64,000 nucleotides of DNA. Source: an uncultured Anaerolineaceae bacterium. Lineage in GTDB: Bacteria > Planctomycetota > Phycisphaerae > FEN-1346 > JAACEH01. The translations under genes and the position numbers were made by a program. Of the stretch, positions 3,865 to 16,773 are shown piece by piece. Below the pieces are notes generated by a model. It saw only the letters and a program-made list of their open reading frames with translations. It did no database searches and had not been told where the DNA came from. Numbering within the stretch: the stretch's first letter is position 1; each line of letters begins with the position of its first letter. Where the stretch lies: the NCBI GenBank assembly GCA_964500225.1, contig CAZCOA010000002.1, forward strand, positions 37,022 through 101,021, given 5' to 3'.

Positions 3865-5442
3865 ATGGACATTGGCCAATCAGTCAAGCAGCTCAGAGAA
3901 CATCTTCAGCGGTTGCTCAAGAGTCCCAGCGACGAACTGGATCGGGGTGGACGGTTCCTTGTCTATCAAATACGCCTGTGGTGGTTCTGCGGACGGAAAC
4001 TCGTCAAGGACCGCCTTCTGGTGACCGCCAGCGCCCTGAGCTACAAGACGCTCATCTCCATCGTGCCGCTGATGGTGATCTTCTTCCTTATCCTCAATGC
4101 CGTCACCCCAGGTCAGGACATTCAGGCGGAGATCAAGGAACGGCTGTTTTCGTTGCTGAACCTCAACATCGGAACCACCGAGGCAGCGACCGAAACATGG
4201 AATATCCCGGCCGATGACATCGAAGCCATGGACCGGGAAACTGTAGCCACATGGCTCGGGGCGAAGGTCGATGACATCGTCAAAACCATTCAGAGTCAGG
4301 GCAAAGGCACTCGCGCACCGATCACGATCATCTCGGTGGCACTGATGATTCTTACCGGAATGAGCGTTTTCAGCACCGTCGAGGGGGCCCTGAACCATAT
4401 CTGGGAGGTTCGCCGCGGCCGCAACTGGTTCGTGCGGCTCAGGGACTTCATCGCCACGATCGTGGTCGTCGGCCTGCTGCTGGCCGTCTCGATCTACGTC
4501 GGGCACCAGATCCGGGGCGTCCTCACCGGCCAAGCCGTCGCCGAGGAAACGCGCACCGAGGCTGCCGCCGAGCCGGCCCTCACGACCGACGCGGCCACAA
4601 CCGGCGCCGGCGGCCTCCCGGCGGCCGACGGCGTTCTGGGAACTGCGGCGAAATGGGTTTTCCGAACACTGTCCCGGCTTGTCCCTTTGTTGATCGGCTG
4701 GCTGGTGTTCTTCATCTTGTACAAAACGTTGCCCAACGTCCGGGTCCAGACGCGGGCCGGCCTGGTTGCCGGACTGGTTGCGGCGGTCCTGTGGGAGGCC
4801 GGCAAGTTCGGATTTGGGATGTACCTGCAATATGCCACCGGGGCAACGAAGCTGTACGGTAACCTGGCGCTGATTCCGGTGTTTCTGTTGTGGGTCTGGA
4901 TCAGTTGGGTGATCGTGCTGTTCGGGGCCGAGCTGGCGTATGTGATTCAGTATATGGGCGACCTGACGCGCGACCAGATGGAGCGCGAGGCCCATCGGCA
5001 CTTCGTGCGGACCGATCTGGCTGCACTGGCCTTGGCCGCCGTCGTGGCCCAGCGATTCGCCCGGGGCGAGCAGCCGCCGTCGCGGCGGCAACTGGGCGAC
5101 GACCTGGGCCTGTCCGAAGGCGACGTCGCCGAAGTGGCCGAGGCGATGCTGGCCGCCGGTCTGTTGCGGCAGGCTGTGGTCGGCAACGGCACGCCAGGGT
5201 ACCTTCCCGCGCGGCCGCTGGACCGGATCACCCTGGCCGACGTGATCGGAACGGGACACCAGATGCAGGTGACCGCTCGTGGCGACGGCCGCCGCGGCAC
5301 CGCCCTGCGGTGGGCCGAACAGTACATGCAACAGATGTCCAAAGAGGTTCAGTCGGCGCTGCAAACGCAGACGCTGGCTTCATTGGCCGACCGGGACGAG
5401 GTGTTCGTCGCCGGGGGGCCGGTCAGAGTGGGCAGTGATTAG
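3865..5442 (+). CDS. YihY/BrkB family inner-membrane protein (formerly annotated RNase BN-like) with C-terminal extension
   Basis: N-terminal ...LVTASALSYKTLISIVPLMVIFF... and multiple TM helices typical of YihY/virulence-factor BrkB. About 150-aa hydrophilic C-terminal domain. Confidence 0.7.
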   Translation: MDIGQSVKQLREHLQRLLKSPSDELDRGGRFLVYQIRLWWFCGRKLVKDRLLVTASALSYKTLISIVPLMVIFFLILNAVTPGQDIQAEIKERLFSLLNLNIGTTEAATETWNIPADDIEAMDRETVATWLGAKVDDIVKTIQSQGKGTRAPITIISVALMILTGMSVFSTVEGALNHIWEVRRGRNWFVRLRDFIATIVVVGLLLAVSIYVGHQIRGVLTGQAVAEETRTEAAAEPALTTDAATTGAGGLPAADGVLGTAAKWVFRTLSRLVPLLIGWLVFFILYKTLPNVRVQTRAGLVAGLVAAVLWEAGKFGFGMYLQYATGATKLYGNLALIPVFLLWVWISWVIVLFGAELAYVIQYMGDLTRDQMEREAHRHFVRTDLAALALAAVVAQRFARGEQPPSRRQLGDDLGLSEGDVAEVAEAMLAAGLLRQAVVGNGTPGYLPARPLDRITLADVIGTGHQMQVTARGDGRRGTALRWAEQYMQQMSKEVQSALQTQTLASLADRDEVFVAGGPVRVGSD

Positions 5443-5451
5443 GGAAAGGGG

Positions 5452-5802
5452 TTGCACATGCGGATCGACTCCTACCGATTTGGTGAGATGCTGGTCAACG
5501 GCCAGAGTTTCACCTCCGACCTCATCATCTACGACGATCACGTGGATGACCAGTGGTGGAGGGAAAACGGTCACATGGTGCTAAAAGAGGACTTGAGCGA
5601 CGTCCTCAATGCCCGCCCCGAAGTGCTCGTCGTGGGCCGCGGCAAACTCGGCGCGATGAAGATTCCACAGGCTACGCTCGATGCCGTGGAAGAGGCCGGC
5701 ATCCAGGTGGTCCACGCTCGCACACCTGAGGCCATCGAAGTCTTCAACCAGATGTCCAGCACCGGCAAGAACGTCGTGGGGGCGTTTCACCTGACCTGCT
5801 GA
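5452..5802 (+). CDS. Mth938-like (DUF498/DUF598) domain protein
   Basis: 116-aa protein with RIDSYRFGEM..., VLVVGRG... and IQVVHARTPEA... blocks typical of the Mth938 family. Starts 9 nt after the yihY stop. Confidence 0.55.
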   Translation: MHMRIDSYRFGEMLVNGQSFTSDLIIYDDHVDDQWWRENGHMVLKEDLSDVLNARPEVLVVGRGKLGAMKIPQATLDAVEEAGIQVVHARTPEAIEVFNQMSSTGKNVVGAFHLTC

Positions 5803-5859
5803 GTGGCCGCACAACGCGAACTGCACAAGGCACACGTCACATGCGACCCGATCACCGCA

Positions 5860-5896
5860 CACACCTTGCCCCGGTTGAGGGCAAGGTGTGTTGTTG
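5860..5896 (+). terminator. intrinsic terminator after the Mth938-like gene
   Basis: Perfect 12-bp stem CACACCTTGCCC / GGGCAAGGTGTG with 7-nt loop, followed by TTGTTG. Confidence 0.5.
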
Positions 5897-6005
5897 CGCA
5901 GCAGGGTCAATCAATGGGCCCGTGAAAGTTCGGTTTATCGTTGCCCGGGGGCGGGGTTGCGGGTATGGTAGTGGCATTGTATGTTCCGGTGGGAGACAGT
6001 CGGCG

Positions 6006-7025
6006 ATGGGGTATGGGTTCAGTGCGAGGGGTATCCGCCTATGGCTGGCGGCGGGCGTGGGTCTGACGGCGGTGGTGCTGGCATCGGCGGTGCACAGCGA
6101 GGGCCAGGAGACGGCAGCCGTCCAGACTGGCAAATTCTCAGCCCATCAGAAGACGGTCAATCGCAACTACTATATGTACGTGCCCACGAAGTACACGCCG
6201 CGCAAGCGGTGGCCGATGATCATTTCGGCTCCGGGGACGTTTCCGTTCGATTCCAGTCCGGGCACGCGCGATGCGTGGGTGGACACGGCGGAGGAATTGG
6301 GGCTGATCGTCTGCTGTCCGGATTTCGAGACGGCCAACGGGTTGCTCAATATCAAGGCGGACCAAGCCAAACTTCAGCGCGACAATGAGGCGGTGCTTGC
6401 GATTATTCGCGATGTGGCCTCGCTTTACAGCATCGACCCAAACGGCATCGCCATCACGGGCTGGTCGGGCGGCGGATACCCGGCCCACTACATCGGCCTG
6501 AAGAACCCGAACCTGATCCGGGCGATCATTGGCCGCACGGCCAACTTCTCGGAAGACCTGGTGGACGACGAAACAGCGCGTAAGGCCAGGCACATGCACG
6601 TGTTCTGTTTCTTCGCCAAGAGCGACCTGGCAGGCATTCCGGAGCAGAACCGCCGGGCCAATTTCTGGTACACGATGCAGGGCTTCCTGAACTTCGAGGT
6701 ACGGGAGATTCCGGGCGGCCACTCGAAGAACAACCGTCTGGCGGGCGACTGGTTCGTCCAGATGTTGCGCACCTACCCGACGGTGCGGATACAGGCCTCG
6801 ACGCTGAAGGGCCGCGCGCCGCTGGCGGTGAATTTCCGGGCGTTGGCAAGCGACCCGGACGGGCGGATCGCCGGCTACATCTGGCAATTCGGGGATGGGG
6901 ACGTAAGCATCCACGCATCGGCCTCGCACACGTTCGCCACGCCAGGCACATACAATGTGTTCCTGACCGTCACGGACAACGACGGCCACCACGAATACGC
7001 CCAGGTGGACGTGGTGGCGGAATAG
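6006..7025 (+). CDS. secreted esterase (PHB depolymerase/alpha-beta hydrolase family) with C-terminal PKD domain
   Basis: Start chosen at internal ATG 6006 (MGYGFSARGIRLWLAAGVGLTAVVLASA = signal peptide). The listed ORF 5841 start lies inside the upstream terminator. GWSGG nucleophile elbow. C-terminal GDGDVSIHASASHTFATPGTYNVFLTVTDNDGH is PKD-like. Confidence 0.65.
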   Translation: MGYGFSARGIRLWLAAGVGLTAVVLASAVHSEGQETAAVQTGKFSAHQKTVNRNYYMYVPTKYTPRKRWPMIISAPGTFPFDSSPGTRDAWVDTAEELGLIVCCPDFETANGLLNIKADQAKLQRDNEAVLAIIRDVASLYSIDPNGIAITGWSGGGYPAHYIGLKNPNLIRAIIGRTANFSEDLVDDETARKARHMHVFCFFAKSDLAGIPEQNRRANFWYTMQGFLNFEVREIPGGHSKNNRLAGDWFVQMLRTYPTVRIQASTLKGRAPLAVNFRALASDPDGRIAGYIWQFGDGDVSIHASASHTFATPGTYNVFLTVTDNDGHHEYAQVDVVAE

Positions 7026-10519: not shown

Positions 10520-10640
10520 GGGCCAAGCCCCTTTTGGTAACGGACGGAATCATTTCGCTTGCGGCGGAGCCGCGTTTTGTGCATTATAGGGGCCTGCGTT
10601 GACGCCGACAATCCTCACGTTGAGCCGAAAGGAGAACCTG

Positions 10641-11012
10641 ATGGCGCGAATTCGCATCACCGCCGGGAAGGTGTCGCTGGAGGCCGAATTGAACACATCG
10701 ACGACGGCGAAACGTTTGCTGGCGGCCCTTCCCATTGAAGGTCGCGCGAATCGATGGGGAGATGAGATCTACTTTTCGATTCCGGTGTCGGCGAACGAGG
10801 AATCGGGCGCGCGGGCCGACATGGCGGTGGGCGAGATTGCGTACTGGCCTCCGGGCAGCGCCTTCTGCATTTTCTGGGGTCCGACGCCTGCCTCCGATGG
10901 CGACCAGCCACGAGCGGCCAGCCCGGTGAATCCGCTGGGGAAGATCGTCGGCGACGCCACGCTGTTCGGCGGCGTGCCGGGAGGAACCAAGGTCCGGATC
11001 GAGGCGGTCTGA
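10641..11012 (+). CDS. cyclophilin-like fold protein (DUF3830-like)
   Basis: MARIRITAG...LEAELNTSTTAKRLLAALP...GEIAYWPPGSAFCIFWG... resembles the small cyclophilin-like superfamily proteins. Start taken at internal ATG 10641 preceded by GAAAGGAGAA. Confidence 0.5.
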   Translation: MARIRITAGKVSLEAELNTSTTAKRLLAALPIEGRANRWGDEIYFSIPVSANEESGARADMAVGEIAYWPPGSAFCIFWGPTPASDGDQPRAASPVNPLGKIVGDATLFGGVPGGTKVRIEAV

Positions 11013-11029
11013 GGGAACGCCGCCGAGCC

Positions 11030-11716
11030 ATGCTAATTCCCTACCTGGCAGACGTGGTGATGCCTCGGTGGCCGATTGCGAACTGGATTCTGATCGGCGC
11101 GTGCGTGTTAGCATTCATCGCGTCCGTGGCCCATGGCACGGCGGCCGACAGCGGCGGGTTGAACCGAGAGAATCCCTCGATCACCCAGTTGGTGACGTAT
11201 CAGTTTCTGCACTTGGACATCTGGCACCTGGCCGGCAACATGTTGTTCTTGTGAACGTTCGGCAACGCCGTCAATGCGAGGCTGGGGCACGTGCTGTACG
11301 TGTTGGCGTACCTCGCCACGGGGGCCGTCGCCGGGCTGTCCTGGCTGCTGATCGGCGACGGCGAGACGCTCATTGGGGCCTCCGGGGCAGTCATGGGGGT
11401 AGTCGGGCTGTTCGCGATCTACTATCCCAAGAACGAAGTGCGGATGTTCTACTTCGTGGTCTTCCGATGGGGCACCTTCAGCGTTTCGGCGATCTGGCTG
11501 ATTTTGATCTATTATGGGCTGGACTTGTACGGCACGGTATTCGGCAGTGGCGATAGCGTGGCGTATATCGCGCACGTGATAGGCGCCCTGCTCGGTGCGG
11601 GGGTGGGGTGGGTTCTGGTGGCCCGCCGGATTGTGCCGTCGGACGCCAACGAGGTGAACCTGCTCCAGATGCTGGGAGCCGCACCGAAGCCGCCGCAGTC
11701 GAATGCGTTGTACTGA
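11030..11716 (+). pseudogene. rhomboid-family intramembrane serine protease interrupted by an in-frame TGA (11252-11254)
   Basis: ORFs 11030..11254 and 11291..11716 are in the same frame. Together they give a complete rhomboid core: TM2 motif HLAGNMLFL-*-TFGNAV, GASGAVMG Ser-active-site helix, AHVIGALLGAGVGW His helix. The stop sits where family members carry W/aromatic (TGG to TGA, one transition). Could be a sequencing error instead of true pseudogenisation. Confidence 0.65.
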
Positions 11717-11765
11717 GCATTCGACGGGTTGTCTCGGCTGATGCGGCGACGGCGCGCGATTACGG

Positions 11766-11794
11766 TTGACAGTGGGTATTCCTTGAAATATACT
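11766..11794 (+). promoter_or_regulatory. consensus sigma70-type promoter at head of nusA leader
   Basis: TTGACA(11766-11771)-N17-TATACT(11789-11794). Anchored against ORF 11729 codon positions. Confidence 0.55.
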
Positions 11795-12227
11795 GCCGTT
11801 TCGGCTTGGTGGACGCCAACCTCAGCGAGAGGCCGTGCGTTCATGGCGCATGTGCTGCTGGACGGCGTCAGGAAGGGCCACACGGGCGACGTGGCGGCCA
11901 TGGCGGTCGCAGGGGGCGTTTGCCGGGTCGGGTAACGTGTTGCCGCTGGTGGTCCGCGTGGCGAAACCTCTGGGTGGCGAGCAGATTGTTCACTTGGAAC
12001 GGATCGGCGCGGATCGGCCGCAGCAGTCGGTTGCGAAACCGGGCAGCCACGCCAGTAGTGGGCGTGGAACAGTGTTTCGATGCGTCCCTGAACATGGAGA
12101 AAGTACACGTGTTTGACAGCGAAAGCCGGCAGGACGTGTCCTTGGAGCAGGAACATGTAGCGAGCGAGCGGTAGAACCTCGGCGCCACGGGTCCGTGACG
12201 TCCGCTCGCCGATTGGCGTGGCCCGAA

Positions 12228-12266
12228 GTGGGGTTCTGCTGAACAGAGGCTCCACTTTTTTGTTTT
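12228..12266 (+). terminator. intrinsic terminator/attenuator about 60 nt upstream of nusA start
   Basis: Stem GTGGGGTT...GGCTCCAC (8 bp including G-U pairs) followed by TTTTTTGTTTT, ending 59 nt before nusA ATG 12325. Confidence 0.4.
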
Positions 12267-12324
12267 CGTCCGCCGTGGGCACGGGGCCGAGAGAGAATCG
12301 GTTAAGGAGAGGTGAGGATATTCA

Positions 12325-13653
12325 ATGAACGGGGACATGTTGCGCCTGATCGACTCGATTGCGCGAGAGAAGAACATTGATCGGGGGGTGGTCTTCGAGG
12401 GAATCGAAGGGGCATTGCTGAGCGCGGCGCGCAAGCAGTACGGGCAGACGGCGGAGATTGTGGCGACGATCGACCGGATCAACGGGACGATGAGTGTGAA
12501 GGTGGACGGCACGCCGATCGACCCTCGCGGGCTGGGTCGTATTGCCGCACAGGCGGCCAAGCAGGTGATGATCCAGAAGAATCGGGAGGCGGAGCGTAAC
12601 AGCATCTTCGAAGAGTTCGCCGGGCGTCAGGGGTCGATCATTTCGGGGCAGGTGTCGCGGATCGAAGGCGGCAACGTGATCGTGAACCTTGGCCGAGCCG
12701 AGGGGTTCCTGCCGCGAAGCGAGCAGATTCCGGGAGAAGCGATTCACGAGGCGGACCGCATCCGGGCACTGATCCTGGAAGTTCGCGAGAGCGGCAACCA
12801 GGTGAAGATTGTGCTGTCGCGGACACACGCGGACTTCATTCGTCGTCTGTTCGAGCTGGAAGTGCCGGAGGTGAGCGATCGGATTATCGAGATCCGGGGG
12901 ATAGCGCGCGAGGCCGGCCAGCGGACGAAAATTGCGGTGTCGAGCATCGACACGCGTGTGGACGCGGTGGGCGCGTGCGTGGGCATTCGGGGGGGGCGCA
13001 TCCGGAATATCGTGGACGAATTGGGAGGCGAGAAGATCGACATCGTGCGGTTTAACGAGTCGTCGCAGGTGTTCATCGCCAACGCGTTGCGTCCGGCGGA
13101 GGTGGAGGACATTTTTCTGAACCACGAGCTGGGGCGGGCGACGGTCATCGTGCCGGAGGACCAGCTCAGCCTGGCCATCGGGAAGCGCGGACAGAACGTG
13201 CGTCTGGCGGCGCGGCTGACGGGGTGGGATCTGGACATCATGATGGCGGAGGAGTTCCAGCAGCAGCGGAACAATGCGATCCGGATTCTGTCGGAAGTGC
13301 CCGGGGTGAGCCCGGAGCTGGCCCAGCGGATCGCGGGTGCCGGATTTGTGAGTTTCGGAGACATTGCGCAACTGGACGTGGAGTCGCTGACGTGCTTTGA
13401 CGGCGTGGACGACGAGCTGGCGCGAGCGATTATCGCGTTTGCGGCAGAGTACACGCGACAGATGCAGGCAGCGGATCAGGCCAAGGCGGAGGCGTCGGCT
13501 GCGGGGACCGAGACCGGGAAGGAGTCGCCGGCGTCGGATGCGAAGACGGAGTCGCGGGTGAGCGACGAGACAACGGACGAAGCGACGGCGGCCGACGAGT
13601 CGCCGACGGGGAAATCGGAATCGGGTGACAGCCAGGAGCAGCCCGAGGAGTAG
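12325..13653 (+). CDS. nusA: transcription termination/antitermination factor NusA
   Basis: 442 aa. S1 and tandem KH domains recognisable (..SGQVSRIEGGNVIVNLG.., ..VGACVGIRGGRIRNIVDELGGEKIDIV..). Strong SD AAGGAGAGGTGAGG upstream. Confidence 0.9.
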   Translation: MNGDMLRLIDSIAREKNIDRGVVFEGIEGALLSAARKQYGQTAEIVATIDRINGTMSVKVDGTPIDPRGLGRIAAQAAKQVMIQKNREAERNSIFEEFAGRQGSIISGQVSRIEGGNVIVNLGRAEGFLPRSEQIPGEAIHEADRIRALILEVRESGNQVKIVLSRTHADFIRRLFELEVPEVSDRIIEIRGIAREAGQRTKIAVSSIDTRVDAVGACVGIRGGRIRNIVDELGGEKIDIVRFNESSQVFIANALRPAEVEDIFLNHELGRATVIVPEDQLSLAIGKRGQNVRLAARLTGWDLDIMMAEEFQQQRNNAIRILSEVPGVSPELAQRIAGAGFVSFGDIAQLDVESLTCFDGVDDELARAIIAFAAEYTRQMQAADQAKAEASAAGTETGKESPASDAKTESRVSDETTDEATAADESPTGKSESGDSQEQPEE

Positions 13654-13704: not shown

Positions 13705-16700
13705 ATGTACGAGCGTACGGAGGTTTCGGGGAGGCGTTTCTTGAGTATCCGACTTTATGCCCTTTCCAAGGAAGTCGGGGTGCCCAGCAAGACGCTGCTG
13801 GAGTATTGCCGCCTTGAAGGCATTGACGTCAACAGTCATGCCAGCACGTTGACAGACAGCGAAGCGGCGAAGCTGCGCGCTCGCGTCGAGGCCGAAGCAA
13901 AAGCGGGGTCGAGGGAGTCTGCTCCATCGGCGCCGTCGGCGGTGGCGCAGTCGGCGGTGGCGTCTTCGGTGCCGGGATCGGTGGCGTTGCCACCGCGGAC
14001 GAGGCCGGGGCAGTTGGCGTTTGCGCCGACGCGTCGCGCGATCCGTACGCATCCTCCGACGGAAGCCGTACTGTCGGAGCCTCCGCCGGCGGCCGCGGCT
14101 GCGGCGACGGCGCCGAGTGAGGCCGCTGCGCCGGCCGTGGAAGCACCTGCGGAACCGTTGGTGGCGGAGAAAGCGACGGCCCCGGTCCCGGTCAAGGCGG
14201 CGCCGACGGAGCCGAAGGCCGTTGTCGAGCTGTCGGCAACAACGACGGAGACGCCCCCGCCGCAGGTGCGCGAGTCGCCCCCGCCCCCTGCCGGCGCGAC
14301 GGCAGCCGCGCCGGCCGTGGCCGAGGCGCAGAAGCCGGCCGCTCCGGAGCCTGCCCCTGCGGCGGAGGCAGAAGCCTCGCCCGAACCACCGCGACGGTCG
14401 TCGAAGGTGGACGACTTCGTGATCGAGATTCCCAAAGCCATCGGCCGAATCGAGATCAAGCCGAAAGAGATTCCGCCGCGGCGCGGCGGCAAGGGCAAGA
14501 AGGGCAAAGAGAAGTCGGCGACCGAGGAGGGCCGCGATCAGAAACCGGTGCGGACGCATCCCCAGGCCATTGGTCATCGCCTGGAGACGGCGACCATGCT
14601 GGGCGAGGCGGGTCGCAAGGCTCGGGAGGTGGCGTCGCGTGCGATCCGGGAGAAACAGCAGGACGCCACTGCCGACACTCAGCGTGGCCTGTCGGCGGAT
14701 ACAAACCGGCCGAAGGCGGGTCGCAGCGCCAGCGCCGGGCCCCGCCGCCGGCGTGGAATCGGCGACTCTCTGGAGATTGACCCGGAGGCGGAGGAGCGGA
14801 AGATTGCTCGCCCGTTGAAGAAGCCGTTGGCGAGCCGTCGCGACGAGGATCGTGTGGACCTGGACGGCGATGTGAACGTGAACGTGTTGAACACCGGCCA
14901 CCTGCGGTTGGAGCGCGGGGAGTCAGTGCGTCGGCCGCTGGGCGAACGTCGTCGCCGTGTCCGAACCATGAGCAAGAAACGGGCGGACGAAGCCGCGGCG
15001 AAGGGGCAAGTTGTGGAGATCGAGGAGCCGATCACGGTGAAGTCGCTGTGTGCGGCAATCGGCGTGCAGAGCGGACCGATGATCGCACACCTGATGCGTC
15101 GCGGAATGATGATCACGGTGAACGAATCGCTGAGCCGGGATCTGGCGGAGGAAGTATCGCTGGAATTCGGCGTGGAACTGAAGGTGAAGGCTGCGGTGGA
15201 CGTCGAGGAGGCGATCCAGGCGGAAGTGGACGCCATGGAAGGGCCGCAGGCGGAATCGCACGAAGTGCCGCGGGCGCCCGTGGTGACGTTCCTGGGCCAC
15301 GTGGACCACGGCAAGACGAGCTTGATCGACCGGATCCGGTCCACCCGGGTGGTGGACGGCGAGTCGGGCGGCATCACGCAACACATCGGGGCGTACCACG
15401 TGAAGATCGGGGAACGTGGCGTGACGTTCCTGGACACGCCGGGTCACGAGGCGTTCACAGCCATGCGTTCGCGCGGCGCCAAGGTGACGGATATCGTGGT
15501 GCTGGTGGTGGCGGCCGACGACGGGATCATGCCGCAGACGGAAGAAGCGATCAACCACGCCCGCGCGGCCGGCGTGCCGATCGTCGTGGCGCTGAACAAG
15601 GTGGATCTGCCGAACGCGAACGTGCAGCGTGTGCTCGGGCAGTTGGCCGAGCGGGACCTGGTGCCGGAACAGTGGGGCGGCAAGACCATCGTGGTCGAGA
15701 CGGTGGCGACGACGGGCCGAGGCATCGACACACTGCTGGAGTCGCTGCTCTTGGAAGCGGAGATGCTGGAGTTGAAAGCGGATCCGACACGTCCGGCGCG
15801 AGGCACGGTGATTGAGGCCCGGATGCGTGAAGGACTCGGGGCGGTGCTGAACCTGCTGGTGCAGGACGGGACGCTCCGGGTGGGCGACATTTTGCTGGGG
15901 GGGCTGGCAGTCGGTCGCGTGAGGGCGATGACGGACGACACGGGGCGCAGCATCCAGGAAGCGGGACCGAGCATGCCGGTGAGCGTGAGCGGCCTGTCGG
16001 TGCTGCCTGACGCGGGCGACCCGTTCTACGTGTTCAAGGACTTGCAGCGGGCGCGCGAGTTCGCCGAGCAGCGTCAGGTACGCGAGCGTCAGGCGGCTCT
16101 GGCGATGCGCAAGCACGTGACCCTGGAAGACCTCTTCCAGCAGATGGAGGCGCAGGACGTCCGCGAGCTTCGGGTAATCATCAAGGCGGACGTGCAGGGA
16201 TCGGTTGAAGTGCTGAAGCAGTCGGTGGGCGAGTTCAAGCACCCGGAAGTGAAGGTGAAGGTGCTTCATGCCGCGGTGGGCGCGATCAACGAAAGCGACG
16301 TGTTGCTGGCCGACGCCAGTGACGCGGTGATCTTCGGGTTCCACGTGATCGTGGACAGCGCGGCCCGTTCGCTGGCCGAGCAAAAAGGGGTGGACATCCG
16401 GTTGTACAGCGTGATCTACCAGGTGCTGGACGATTTGAAGAAGGCCCTGGAAGGCATGCTGGCCCCGGAGACGCGTACTGACGTGGTAGGCCACCTGGTG
16501 GTACGTCAGACGTTCAAGGTATCTCGTCTGGGGACGATTGCCGGTTGCTATGTGACCGACGGGGTGATCCGACGGACAAACACGGTCCGAGTGAGTCGTC
16601 AGGGCGTGGTGGTACACGAGGGACAGTTGGAATCGCTGAAACGGTTCAAGGACGACGTGCGCGAGGTGACCGCCGGGATGGAATGCGGCCTCAAGCTTGT

Positions 16701-16773
16701 CGGGTTCGACGACGTGAAGGTCGATGACGTCATCGAGGCGATTCAGACGGTGGAGATCAAGCGGAAGCTGTAA
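13705..16773 (+). CDS. infB: translation initiation factor IF-2
   Basis: IF2_N motif ([26 protein letters not shown]). Long Ala/Pro/Glu-rich linker. G-domain [22 protein letters not shown]. Confidence 0.9.

Follow-up and report, generated by a model that had tools for sequence, protein, structure and literature searches.

A decayed ABC ATPase gene between a conserved promoter and a candidate attenuator upstream of nusA in Phycisphaerae

The subject of this analysis is the region upstream of nusA in a 64-kb stretch of DNA from an uncultured planctomycete of the class Phycisphaerae (contig CAZCOA010000002.1, positions 37,022 to 101,021; this whole 64,000-nt stretch is called the window below, and positions are counted from its first nucleotide). 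From the sequence alone, it had been proposed (the original prediction) that a consensus promoter and an intrinsic terminator here enclose either a long regulated leader or an independent small RNA. The middle of the region, 11801-12142, is almost certainly the pseudogene of a UgpC/MalK-type ABC ATPase (a sugar-transporter ATPase). The promoter before it and a structured element of 124 nt after it are, by the substitution pattern, under strong purifying selection in the window lineage. The death of the gene between them is a natural deletion experiment, revealing which flanking nucleotides the cell could not lose. The favoured reading overall, given a probability of about two in three, is that promoter and element drive and throttle the nusA-infB operon.

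The nusA-infB locus

The window has a GC content of 65%, and its NusA relatives place it in the Phycisphaerae. The rhomboid and nusA genes are separated by a gap of 608 nt without an intact open reading frame (ORF), laid out as follows:

10599-11012: cyclophilin-like gene, upstream of the rhomboid gene
ending at 11716: rhomboid gene, the next gene upstream of the gap
11755-11800 (+): promoter block, with -35 TTGACA at 11766-11771, a 17-nt spacer and -10 TATACT at 11789-11794
11801-12142: ATPase pseudogene
12143-12266 (+): nusA leader element (covariance model R1), directly upstream of nusA
12267-12324 (+): spacer, with the nusA Shine-Dalgarno (SD) sequence GGAGAGGUGAGG at 12306-12317, which is very strong (AAGGAGAGGUGAGG, 12305-12317)
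12325-13653 (+): nusA, and 13705-16773 (+): infB, from Pfam NusA domains, ORFs and synteny

The promoter (TTGACA-N17-TATACT, 11766-11794), with a transcription start predicted near 11801, scores 11/12 and is the sole match at or above that score on either strand of the 64 kb (block shuffles lead one to expect 0.07). It is identical in relatives, where GGTTGACA-N17-(A)ATATACTGCC is kept upstream of the ABC ATPase gene in 11 loci, so the consensus promoter of the original prediction is confirmed. No second sigma-70-like promoter was found on the + strand between 10500 and 14000, and no promoter-like site between the T run of the terminator and the nusA ATG (12267-12324). A search by eye for a second nusA promoter in 12050-12324 gave nothing convincing or conserved: the TTGACA at 12112 arises from conserved FD codons and lacks a -10 element; TAGAAC is the stop codon of the ATPase relic.

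The absence of rimP immediately before nusA, already remarked on from the sequence, holds both at this locus, where none was found between the rhomboid gene and nusA, and upstream of nusA in the relatives examined. A tblastn search for RimP gave no credible match, although it was a weak test, with a hand-typed E. coli RimP query.

Remnant of an ABC ATPase gene

Three frames of the gap encode three pieces of an ABC ATPase: the start (MAHVLLDGVRK..., from the ATG at 11843), part of the C-terminal OB/TOBE region (NVLPLVVRVAKPLGGEQIVHLE...) and the end (...MEKVHVFDSESRQDVSLEQEHVASER*). In a related Phycisphaerae metagenome-assembled genome (locus L004), an intact ABC ATPase of 386 amino acids lies between the rhomboid gene and nusA. 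The NusA proteins of L004 and the window are 86% identical over their full length and 96% over the core, and the flanks of the two loci are collinear at 89-90% DNA identity. The DNA alignment has three collinear blocks: window 11000-11722 corresponds to L004 3580-4302, 11755-11899 to 4602-4755, and 11904-12700 to 5581-6376. The L004 protein is a member of the UgpC subfamily: it scores 485 bits with the NF008653 profile (cut-off 432), which stops 11 residues short of the C-terminus of the protein. Used as a tblastn query against the window, it recovers residues 282-347 and 349-386 in two frames (joint E = 2.5e-32); no other copy of the ATPase was found in the 64 kb. The relic is made up of the following parts:

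11801-11842 (+): former 5′ untranslated region of the ATPase gene, now unconstrained, with 71% identity to L004
11843-11898 (+): N-terminal stub (MAHVLLDGVRK..GDV), with the original ATG at 11843 and a 9-nt in-frame deletion; aligns to L004 4690-4754
11899-11903 (+): deletion junction, with ~825 nt missing (L004 ~4756-5580, residues ~23-281), from pairwise alignment and blastn
11904-12053 (+): C-terminal relic, part 1 (residues ~282-347, OB/TOBE-like), in a frame other than that of the start codon; tblastn identity 64%, substitutions by codon position 7/7/13
12050-12057 (+): +1 frameshift and clustered substitutions, from alignment to L004 and L016
12058-12174 (+): C-terminal relic, part 2 (residues 349-386, ending ...MEKVHVFDSESRQDVSLEQEHVASER, stop codon 12172-12174); tblastn identity 84%; the final ~30 nt are shared with the conserved leader element

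The deletion of ~825 nt took the Walker A, Q-loop, LSGGQ, Walker B and H-loop motifs. What is left has none of these catalytic motifs and lacks the single open frame of a functional UgpC/MalK-type ATPase; it does have the significant homology at an orthologous locus by which a pseudogene of this type is recognized. A possible 7-nt island at the junction (CATGGCG) hints that the deletion may have taken place in two steps.

Pfam searches with each relic frame and with hand-spliced composites gave no matches, nor did a phmmer search of the relic against PDB; the remnant is too short and decayed for profile searches, and its homology is visible only against a close orthologue. This is probably why the original prediction, made by eye, saw no credible ORF here, and took the three listed ones for Arg/Gly-rich frame artefacts. 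It was right that no ORF is intact, but two of the three (11835-12116 and 11806-12174) carry in-frame remnants of the ABC ATPase C-terminus. The same prediction had named a conserved protein encoded in the region, such as a divergent RimP, as evidence that would count against it; in a sense there is one, a dead ABC ATPase rather than RimP.

A further deletion lies upstream of the promoter. Window 11717-11754 corresponds to L004 4303-4601, so that ~270 nt between the rhomboid stop codon and the promoter are missing from the window; the L019 spacer resembles that of L004 here, with a called ORF of 60 amino acids. This deletion ends ~10-30 nt short of the -35 element. Two deletions thus flank the promoter, and both spare it.

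Ancestral gene order and a second loss

The order ATPase gene-nusA-infB, with a spacer of 143-159 nt between ATPase gene and nusA, is found in L002, L004, L012, L013, L014, L016 and L019-L025, and with a longer spacer in L026. At least 13 Phycisphaerae relatives have an intact ATPase gene between the same promoter and the same terminator, while the gene upstream of it varies (rhomboid, cyclophilin-like, oxidoreductase, glycoside hydrolase or TPR protein). The conserved synteny and promoter point to an ancestral unit consisting of promoter, ATPase gene, spacer with terminator, nusA and infB. The L026 spacer (1389-1703, 315 nt) contains, after the terminator, several direct and inverted copies of TCGTCATTCGG / AATGACGA, apparently an inserted repeat array.

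The ATPase gene has also been lost in L001, which the NusA tree places on a deep branch of its own and whose upstream neighbour is a divergent nifU gene. L001 keeps a promoter (TTGACG-18-TAGAAT) and the leader element from UGGAG on (88 bits, E = 5e-22 with the covariance model); its sequence upstream of the retained element is no longer alignable. Both L001 and the window have CGGTCGCAGG near the junction, and a single ancestral deletion was considered for the two; it is ruled out by the NusA tree, in which the window is nested among relatives with an intact ATPase.

Selection after gene death

Substitutions specific to the window lineage, polarised with L016 as outgroup, are distributed as follows:

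promoter block, 11755-11800: 0/46
old 5′ untranslated region, 11801-11842: 10/42
N-terminal stub, 11843-11898: 7/56
C-terminal relic, 11904-12142: 28/238 (part 1, 11904-12053: 17/150)
leader element, 12143-12266: 2/123, against ~12.5% for neutral sites (P ~1e-5)
spacer from terminator to nusA ATG: 2/58
nusA third codon positions: 53/392 (13.5%)

The relic has changed at ~12% of its sites, the neutral rate, and its substitutions are spread over all codon positions, which indicates that the ATPase has been dead essentially since the split. For promoter and element taken together, 2 or fewer changes in 169 sites would be expected with a probability of 5e-8 if the rate were 0.125. Upstream of the element, 12133 is the last site with a window-specific substitution, and constraint sets in from ~12140.

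The leader element and its alternative helices

A covariance model was built from 14 distinct aligned leaders (alignment A3). It matched 18 loci, all immediately upstream of nusA and none elsewhere in 254 kb, with a best E of 4e-33. The features within the element, all on the + strand, are:

12144-12160: start-stop mini-ORF, with GGAG at 12144-12147, then 7 nt, AUG at 12155-12157 and UAG at 12158-12160
12164-12170 (GCGAGCG) with 12203-12209: helix P0, candidate anti-antiterminator, 84% of alignment cells paired
12173-12180 (AGAACCUC) with 12230-12237 (GGGGUUCU): helix AT, candidate antiterminator, 96% of cells paired in 14 sequences
12181-12189 (GGCGCCACG) with 12194-12202 (CGUGACGUC): hairpin H1, 94% of cells paired, compensatory change at 5 of 9 pairs
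12205-12210 with 12215-12221: hairpin H2, 90% of cells paired, no compensatory change
12226-12237 with 12246-12257: helix T, 93% of cells paired, 2 compensatory pairs
12226-12266: intrinsic terminator T, with stem 12226-12233/12250-12257, an upper stem, and then TTTTTTGTTTT at 12256-12266

A comparative alignment and an Rfam scan had both been suggested as checks in the original prediction. In the alignment, covariation supports helices H1, P0 and T, all within the last ~124 nt; in P0, three pairs have changed on both sides (28/77, 30/75 and 31/74). The AT helix is nearly invariant, so that it is compatible with the alignment but not proven by covariation. The Rfam 15 scan of the window and 11 related loci gave no match at gathering score to any family, known riboswitches and non-coding RNAs included; sub-threshold matches (ovine_lenti_FSE, aspS) were put down to chance. 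Neither the fold of the whole transcript (z = -0.88) nor that of the spacer (z = -0.39) is significantly stable.

The helices compete for sequence. The 5′ strand of P0 is formed by the last codons of the ATPase ORF, and that of AT overlaps the old ATPase stop codon, while the 3′ strand of AT lies inside the 5′ arm of T. P0 crosses AT, and P0 and H2 share nucleotides and are mutually exclusive. These conflicts (P0 with AT, P0 with H2, AT with T) imply two exclusive states, one with P0, H1 and T, predicted to terminate, and one in which AT, H1 and H2 form a three-way junction, predicted to read through. In 10 of the 11 sequences open to evaluation, the alternative states differ in energy by ~3 kcal/mol at most. 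A three-state switch is a tentative proposal, held at somewhat less than even odds.

The terminator itself was part of the original prediction, and the comparison bears it out. RNAfold forms its hairpin (arms AAGUGGGG...CUCCACUU, 12226-12257), relatives show compensatory changes, and the T run (U6GU4) ends 58 nt before the nusA ATG at 12325. It escaped a simple terminator scanner on account of an internal loop and a long apical part. The + strand of the window has only three T6 runs, and of these only the present one follows a hairpin; the other two (48601 and 53054) lack one upstream and are in coding-like sequence. A hairpin with a T-tract is found 43-225 nt upstream of the nusA ATG in all 12 Phycisphaerae loci examined for it, also in loci with a divergent gene upstream (L001, L009) or with the upstream gene over 400 nt away (L005). 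Two further pairings were tried and discarded: that of the terminator 3′ arm with the nusA SD sequence is poor and not conserved, and that of UGGAGC (12143) with GCUCCA of the terminator 3′ arm occurs only in the subgroup of the window, without covariation.

The start-stop mini-ORF

The AUG-stop of the mini-ORF is out of frame with the ABC ATPase. An SD-AUG-stop arrangement is seen in 15 leaders, mostly with UAG (UGA in L002, UAA in L025, and AUG-ACG-UAG in L014), and the motif is unique in the 64 kb. In the ATPase frame the same nucleotides encode His-Val, with a marked codon bias: the His codon is CAT in 12/12 genes, against a genome usage of 25%, and the Val codon is GTA in 11/12, against 4.5%, the exception (GTG-A) still yielding a UGA stop. 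The motif is also kept in both relic lineages, where protein coding is gone. The 11-residue tail of the ATPase that contains these codons (SLEPEHVASG-like) extends beyond the UgpC profile, and may be nothing more than the product of the ORF running on into the regulatory element (window 12143-12174 and orthologues).

A ribosome with an AUG in its P site covers the mRNA to about +16. Counted from the AUG at 12155, the P0 5′ strand lies at +10 to +16 and the AT strand begins at +19. From these positions, a ribosome on the AUG would be expected to cover the P0 5′ strand and leave AT free, favouring the antiterminator. The positions of AUG, P0 and AT thus fit the geometry of a ribosome-mediated attenuator, and conservation and codon bias support the AUG-stop; that the element senses ribosomes through it is nevertheless rated as rather doubtful. 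If it does, a 70S ribosome initiating at the SD-AUG-UAG (12144-12160) would park over the P0 5′ strand; with P0 blocked, AGAACCUC (12173-12180) would capture the T 5′ arm in the three-way junction. The cell's capacity to initiate translation would thereby control how far transcription enters nusA and infB (IF2), and NusA might adjust the terminator in addition.

Such a device would amount to an attenuator that senses ribosomes without a leader peptide and serves an initiation-factor operon; if confirmed, it would tie the amounts of NusA and IF2 to initiation by ribosomes. That the element is fused with the 3′ end of the upstream ORF would also account for two lineages having deleted that ORF but spared its last 30 nt. 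No report of a start-stop element controlling nusA-infB was found in the literature.

Function of promoter and element

The two retained segments probably serve nusA-infB, and are likely to have been retained because they are jointly its promoter and attenuator. The ATPase gene died in the window lineage, with the ~825-nt loss, the 9-nt deletion and the +1 frameshift, and the rest is drifting neutrally. In the model proposed, transcription from 11766 would reach nusA only by read-through of T. T would compete with the antiterminator three-way junction (AT, H1 and H2), which P0 would block, and the efficiency of termination might depend on NusA, in the manner of the rimP-leader and B. subtilis systems, on a ribosome on the SD-AUG-UAG overlapping the P0 5′ strand, or on both. 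Selection has kept both promoter and terminator constant in this lineage, and a terminator is present upstream of nusA throughout the class, so that the final ~125 nt are best read as an attenuator like those of E. coli and B. subtilis, a reading that is well supported on comparative evidence. The attenuator idea of the original prediction therefore survives for these ~125 nt; its long leader or small RNA is wrong for about three quarters of the span, the other 340 nt or so (11801-12142) being neutral pseudogene.

Several points weigh against this interpretation. The transcription start, the 3′ ends and read-through are predictions from sequence. Planctomycete promoters are poorly characterised, and a non-consensus nusA promoter inside or after the element is possible. 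The near-invariance of AT means that covariation neither proves nor refutes it, and a complement of 8 bp within 100 nt is not rare by chance in one sequence. The element could be conserved for other reasons, such as mRNA processing or stability, or protein binding. The Rfam rimP model gives no match. Finally, the 14 aligned sequences represent ~5-6 lineages, so that statistical power is modest.

Among other explanations, the element might be a riboswitch-like three-way junction (AT/H1/H2) sensing, for example, a ribosomal protein, IF2 or a metabolite. The two nearly isoenergetic folds would suit this, as would the high conservation of single-stranded and junction sequences and an H1 that keeps its shape while its sequence varies. 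It seems unlikely all the same, since no known riboswitch matches, the junction is small with few conserved unpaired positions, and the genomic context suggests no ligand.

It is also conceivable, though improbable, that promoter and terminator are leftovers of the dead ATPase gene and that nusA has a promoter of its own that has gone unrecognized. In relatives with an intact ATPase, T does sit where that gene's terminator would be, and the rules for a promoter consensus in this phylum are uncertain. Leftovers, however, should have decayed by ~12% like the relic, while 0/46 and 2/123 changes are seen; the same two parts survive in L001, where the gene was lost independently; nusA is preceded by a terminator also in loci without a co-directional upstream gene; and nothing promoter-like lies between T and the ATG.

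The independent small RNA of ~460 nt put forward in the original prediction fares considerably worse. A strong promoter, a strong terminator and the lack of an intact encoded protein (here over ~466 nt) would be expected of one. Against it, and strongly, the central ~340 nt are coding-derived and neutral; the corresponding position in close relatives is taken by a full protein gene; and neither the fold (z = -0.88) nor Rfam gives it any support, so that this claim has to be given up as highly improbable.

Least probable is an assembly or sequencing artefact hiding a gene that is really intact: a single contig carries the exact window NusA protein, so there is no independent assembly to compare, but the remnant also has the 9-nt deletion, the frameshift and ~12% lineage-specific substitutions at all codon positions, a pattern that a collapsed assembly would not produce.

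On the favoured reading of a promoter and attenuator for nusA-infB, the locus defines a compact promoter and 124-nt leader for this operon in Phycisphaerae. It also shows that an extended region without ORFs, flanked by a perfect promoter and a terminator, may be a gene that has died and not a regulatory RNA. To our knowledge, gene regulation in the Planctomycetota is almost unstudied.

More distant relatives and downstream proteins

More distant Phycisphaerae (L005-L009) have no ATPase gene upstream of nusA, and have ORF-poor leaders of 0.5-1 kb. Three of them (L007 5570-5640, L008 5575-5645 and L009 5750-5800) share GGAG...GUGAUGGG[hairpin]CCCAUCYUGG, with a covarying stem, and two others (L005 5660-5720 and L006 250-320) a conserved 15-codon mini-ORF ((M/V)V..FAIQ.A.RHD.*). 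Rfam gives no match. These blocks could be a different, older nusA leader RNA. The last ~60 nt before the nusA ATG in L005-L009 have no SD sequence and instead a repeated CA-rich motif (GACAAYU / AACAACU); set against the SD sequence of the window clade, this looks like a switch of translation-initiation signal within the class.

In the proteins encoded downstream, the C-terminal tail of NusA (window 13400-13653) is acidic, of low complexity and rich in E, D, S, T and A, with NusA lengths of 433-518 amino acids in relatives. The N-terminal region of IF2 (window 13900-14500) is long and Ala/Pro-rich.

Comparison with known systems

The relic N- and C-termini are homologous to UgpC/MalK/MsiK-type ATPases (NF008653; Pfam ABC_tran and OB_MalK), intact orthologues of which occupy the same locus in relatives. 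Unlike these, the relic has no catalytic motifs and a broken frame, and the proteins of this clade have an 11-residue C-terminal extension that overlaps the leader RNA.

With leader-peptide attenuators of the trpL/pyrL kind, the element shares an SD sequence and start codon upstream of exclusive helices and a terminator. It differs in that its "peptide" would be fMet only, so that there can be no amino-acid sensing, and in lying inside the 3′ end of another ORF. Ribosome profiling in E. coli and Campylobacter has revealed out-of-frame "start-stop" sites (PMC11955535).

Autoregulation by NusA is described for the metY-rimP-nusA-infB operon of E. coli (Plumbridge 1985 and Nakamura 1985, as cited in PMC2965389) and for B. 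subtilis nusA, through NusA-stimulated termination in the leader (as summarised in PMC12288461, citing Mondal et al. 2016). The window resembles both in having a leader terminator between the operon promoter and nusA-infB, through which the product could logically exert negative feedback; it differs from both in phylum and sequence, and in that its leader overlaps the 3′ end of an upstream ORF.

The closest comparison is with the rimP-leader, described as the most widespread bacterial attenuator, a conserved premature terminator before rimP-nusA-infB (Naville & Gautheret 2010, PMC2965389). Its terminator has a G-rich 5′ arm, a C-rich 3′ arm and a U stretch, lies 4-130 nt before the operon, and has NusA as its suspected effector (PMC2965389). 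The window terminator shares all of these structural features as well as a conserved 5′ arm sequence, and its 58 nt to nusA fall within the published range. Its stem is GUGGGG...CUCCAC (with a G-U pair), however, not GGGc...gCCC, and nusA follows the element directly, with an ABC ATPase gene or its relic before it and no rimP. Slices of 201 and 751 nt gave no match to the Rfam rimP-leader model, either at gathering score or at E <=10. Since it fails this model and has neither the GGGc(...)gCCC signature nor a downstream rimP, the element is not filed as a member of the rimP-leader family. It also has, unlike the common rimP-leader, a clear antiterminator/anti-antiterminator pair and an SD-AUG-stop. 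The explicit alternative helices and AUG-stop proposed here give a directly testable model of how the widespread rimP/nusA leader terminators might work. By analogy, the element would appear to resemble the rimP-leader and the NusA-autoregulated attenuators in its working.

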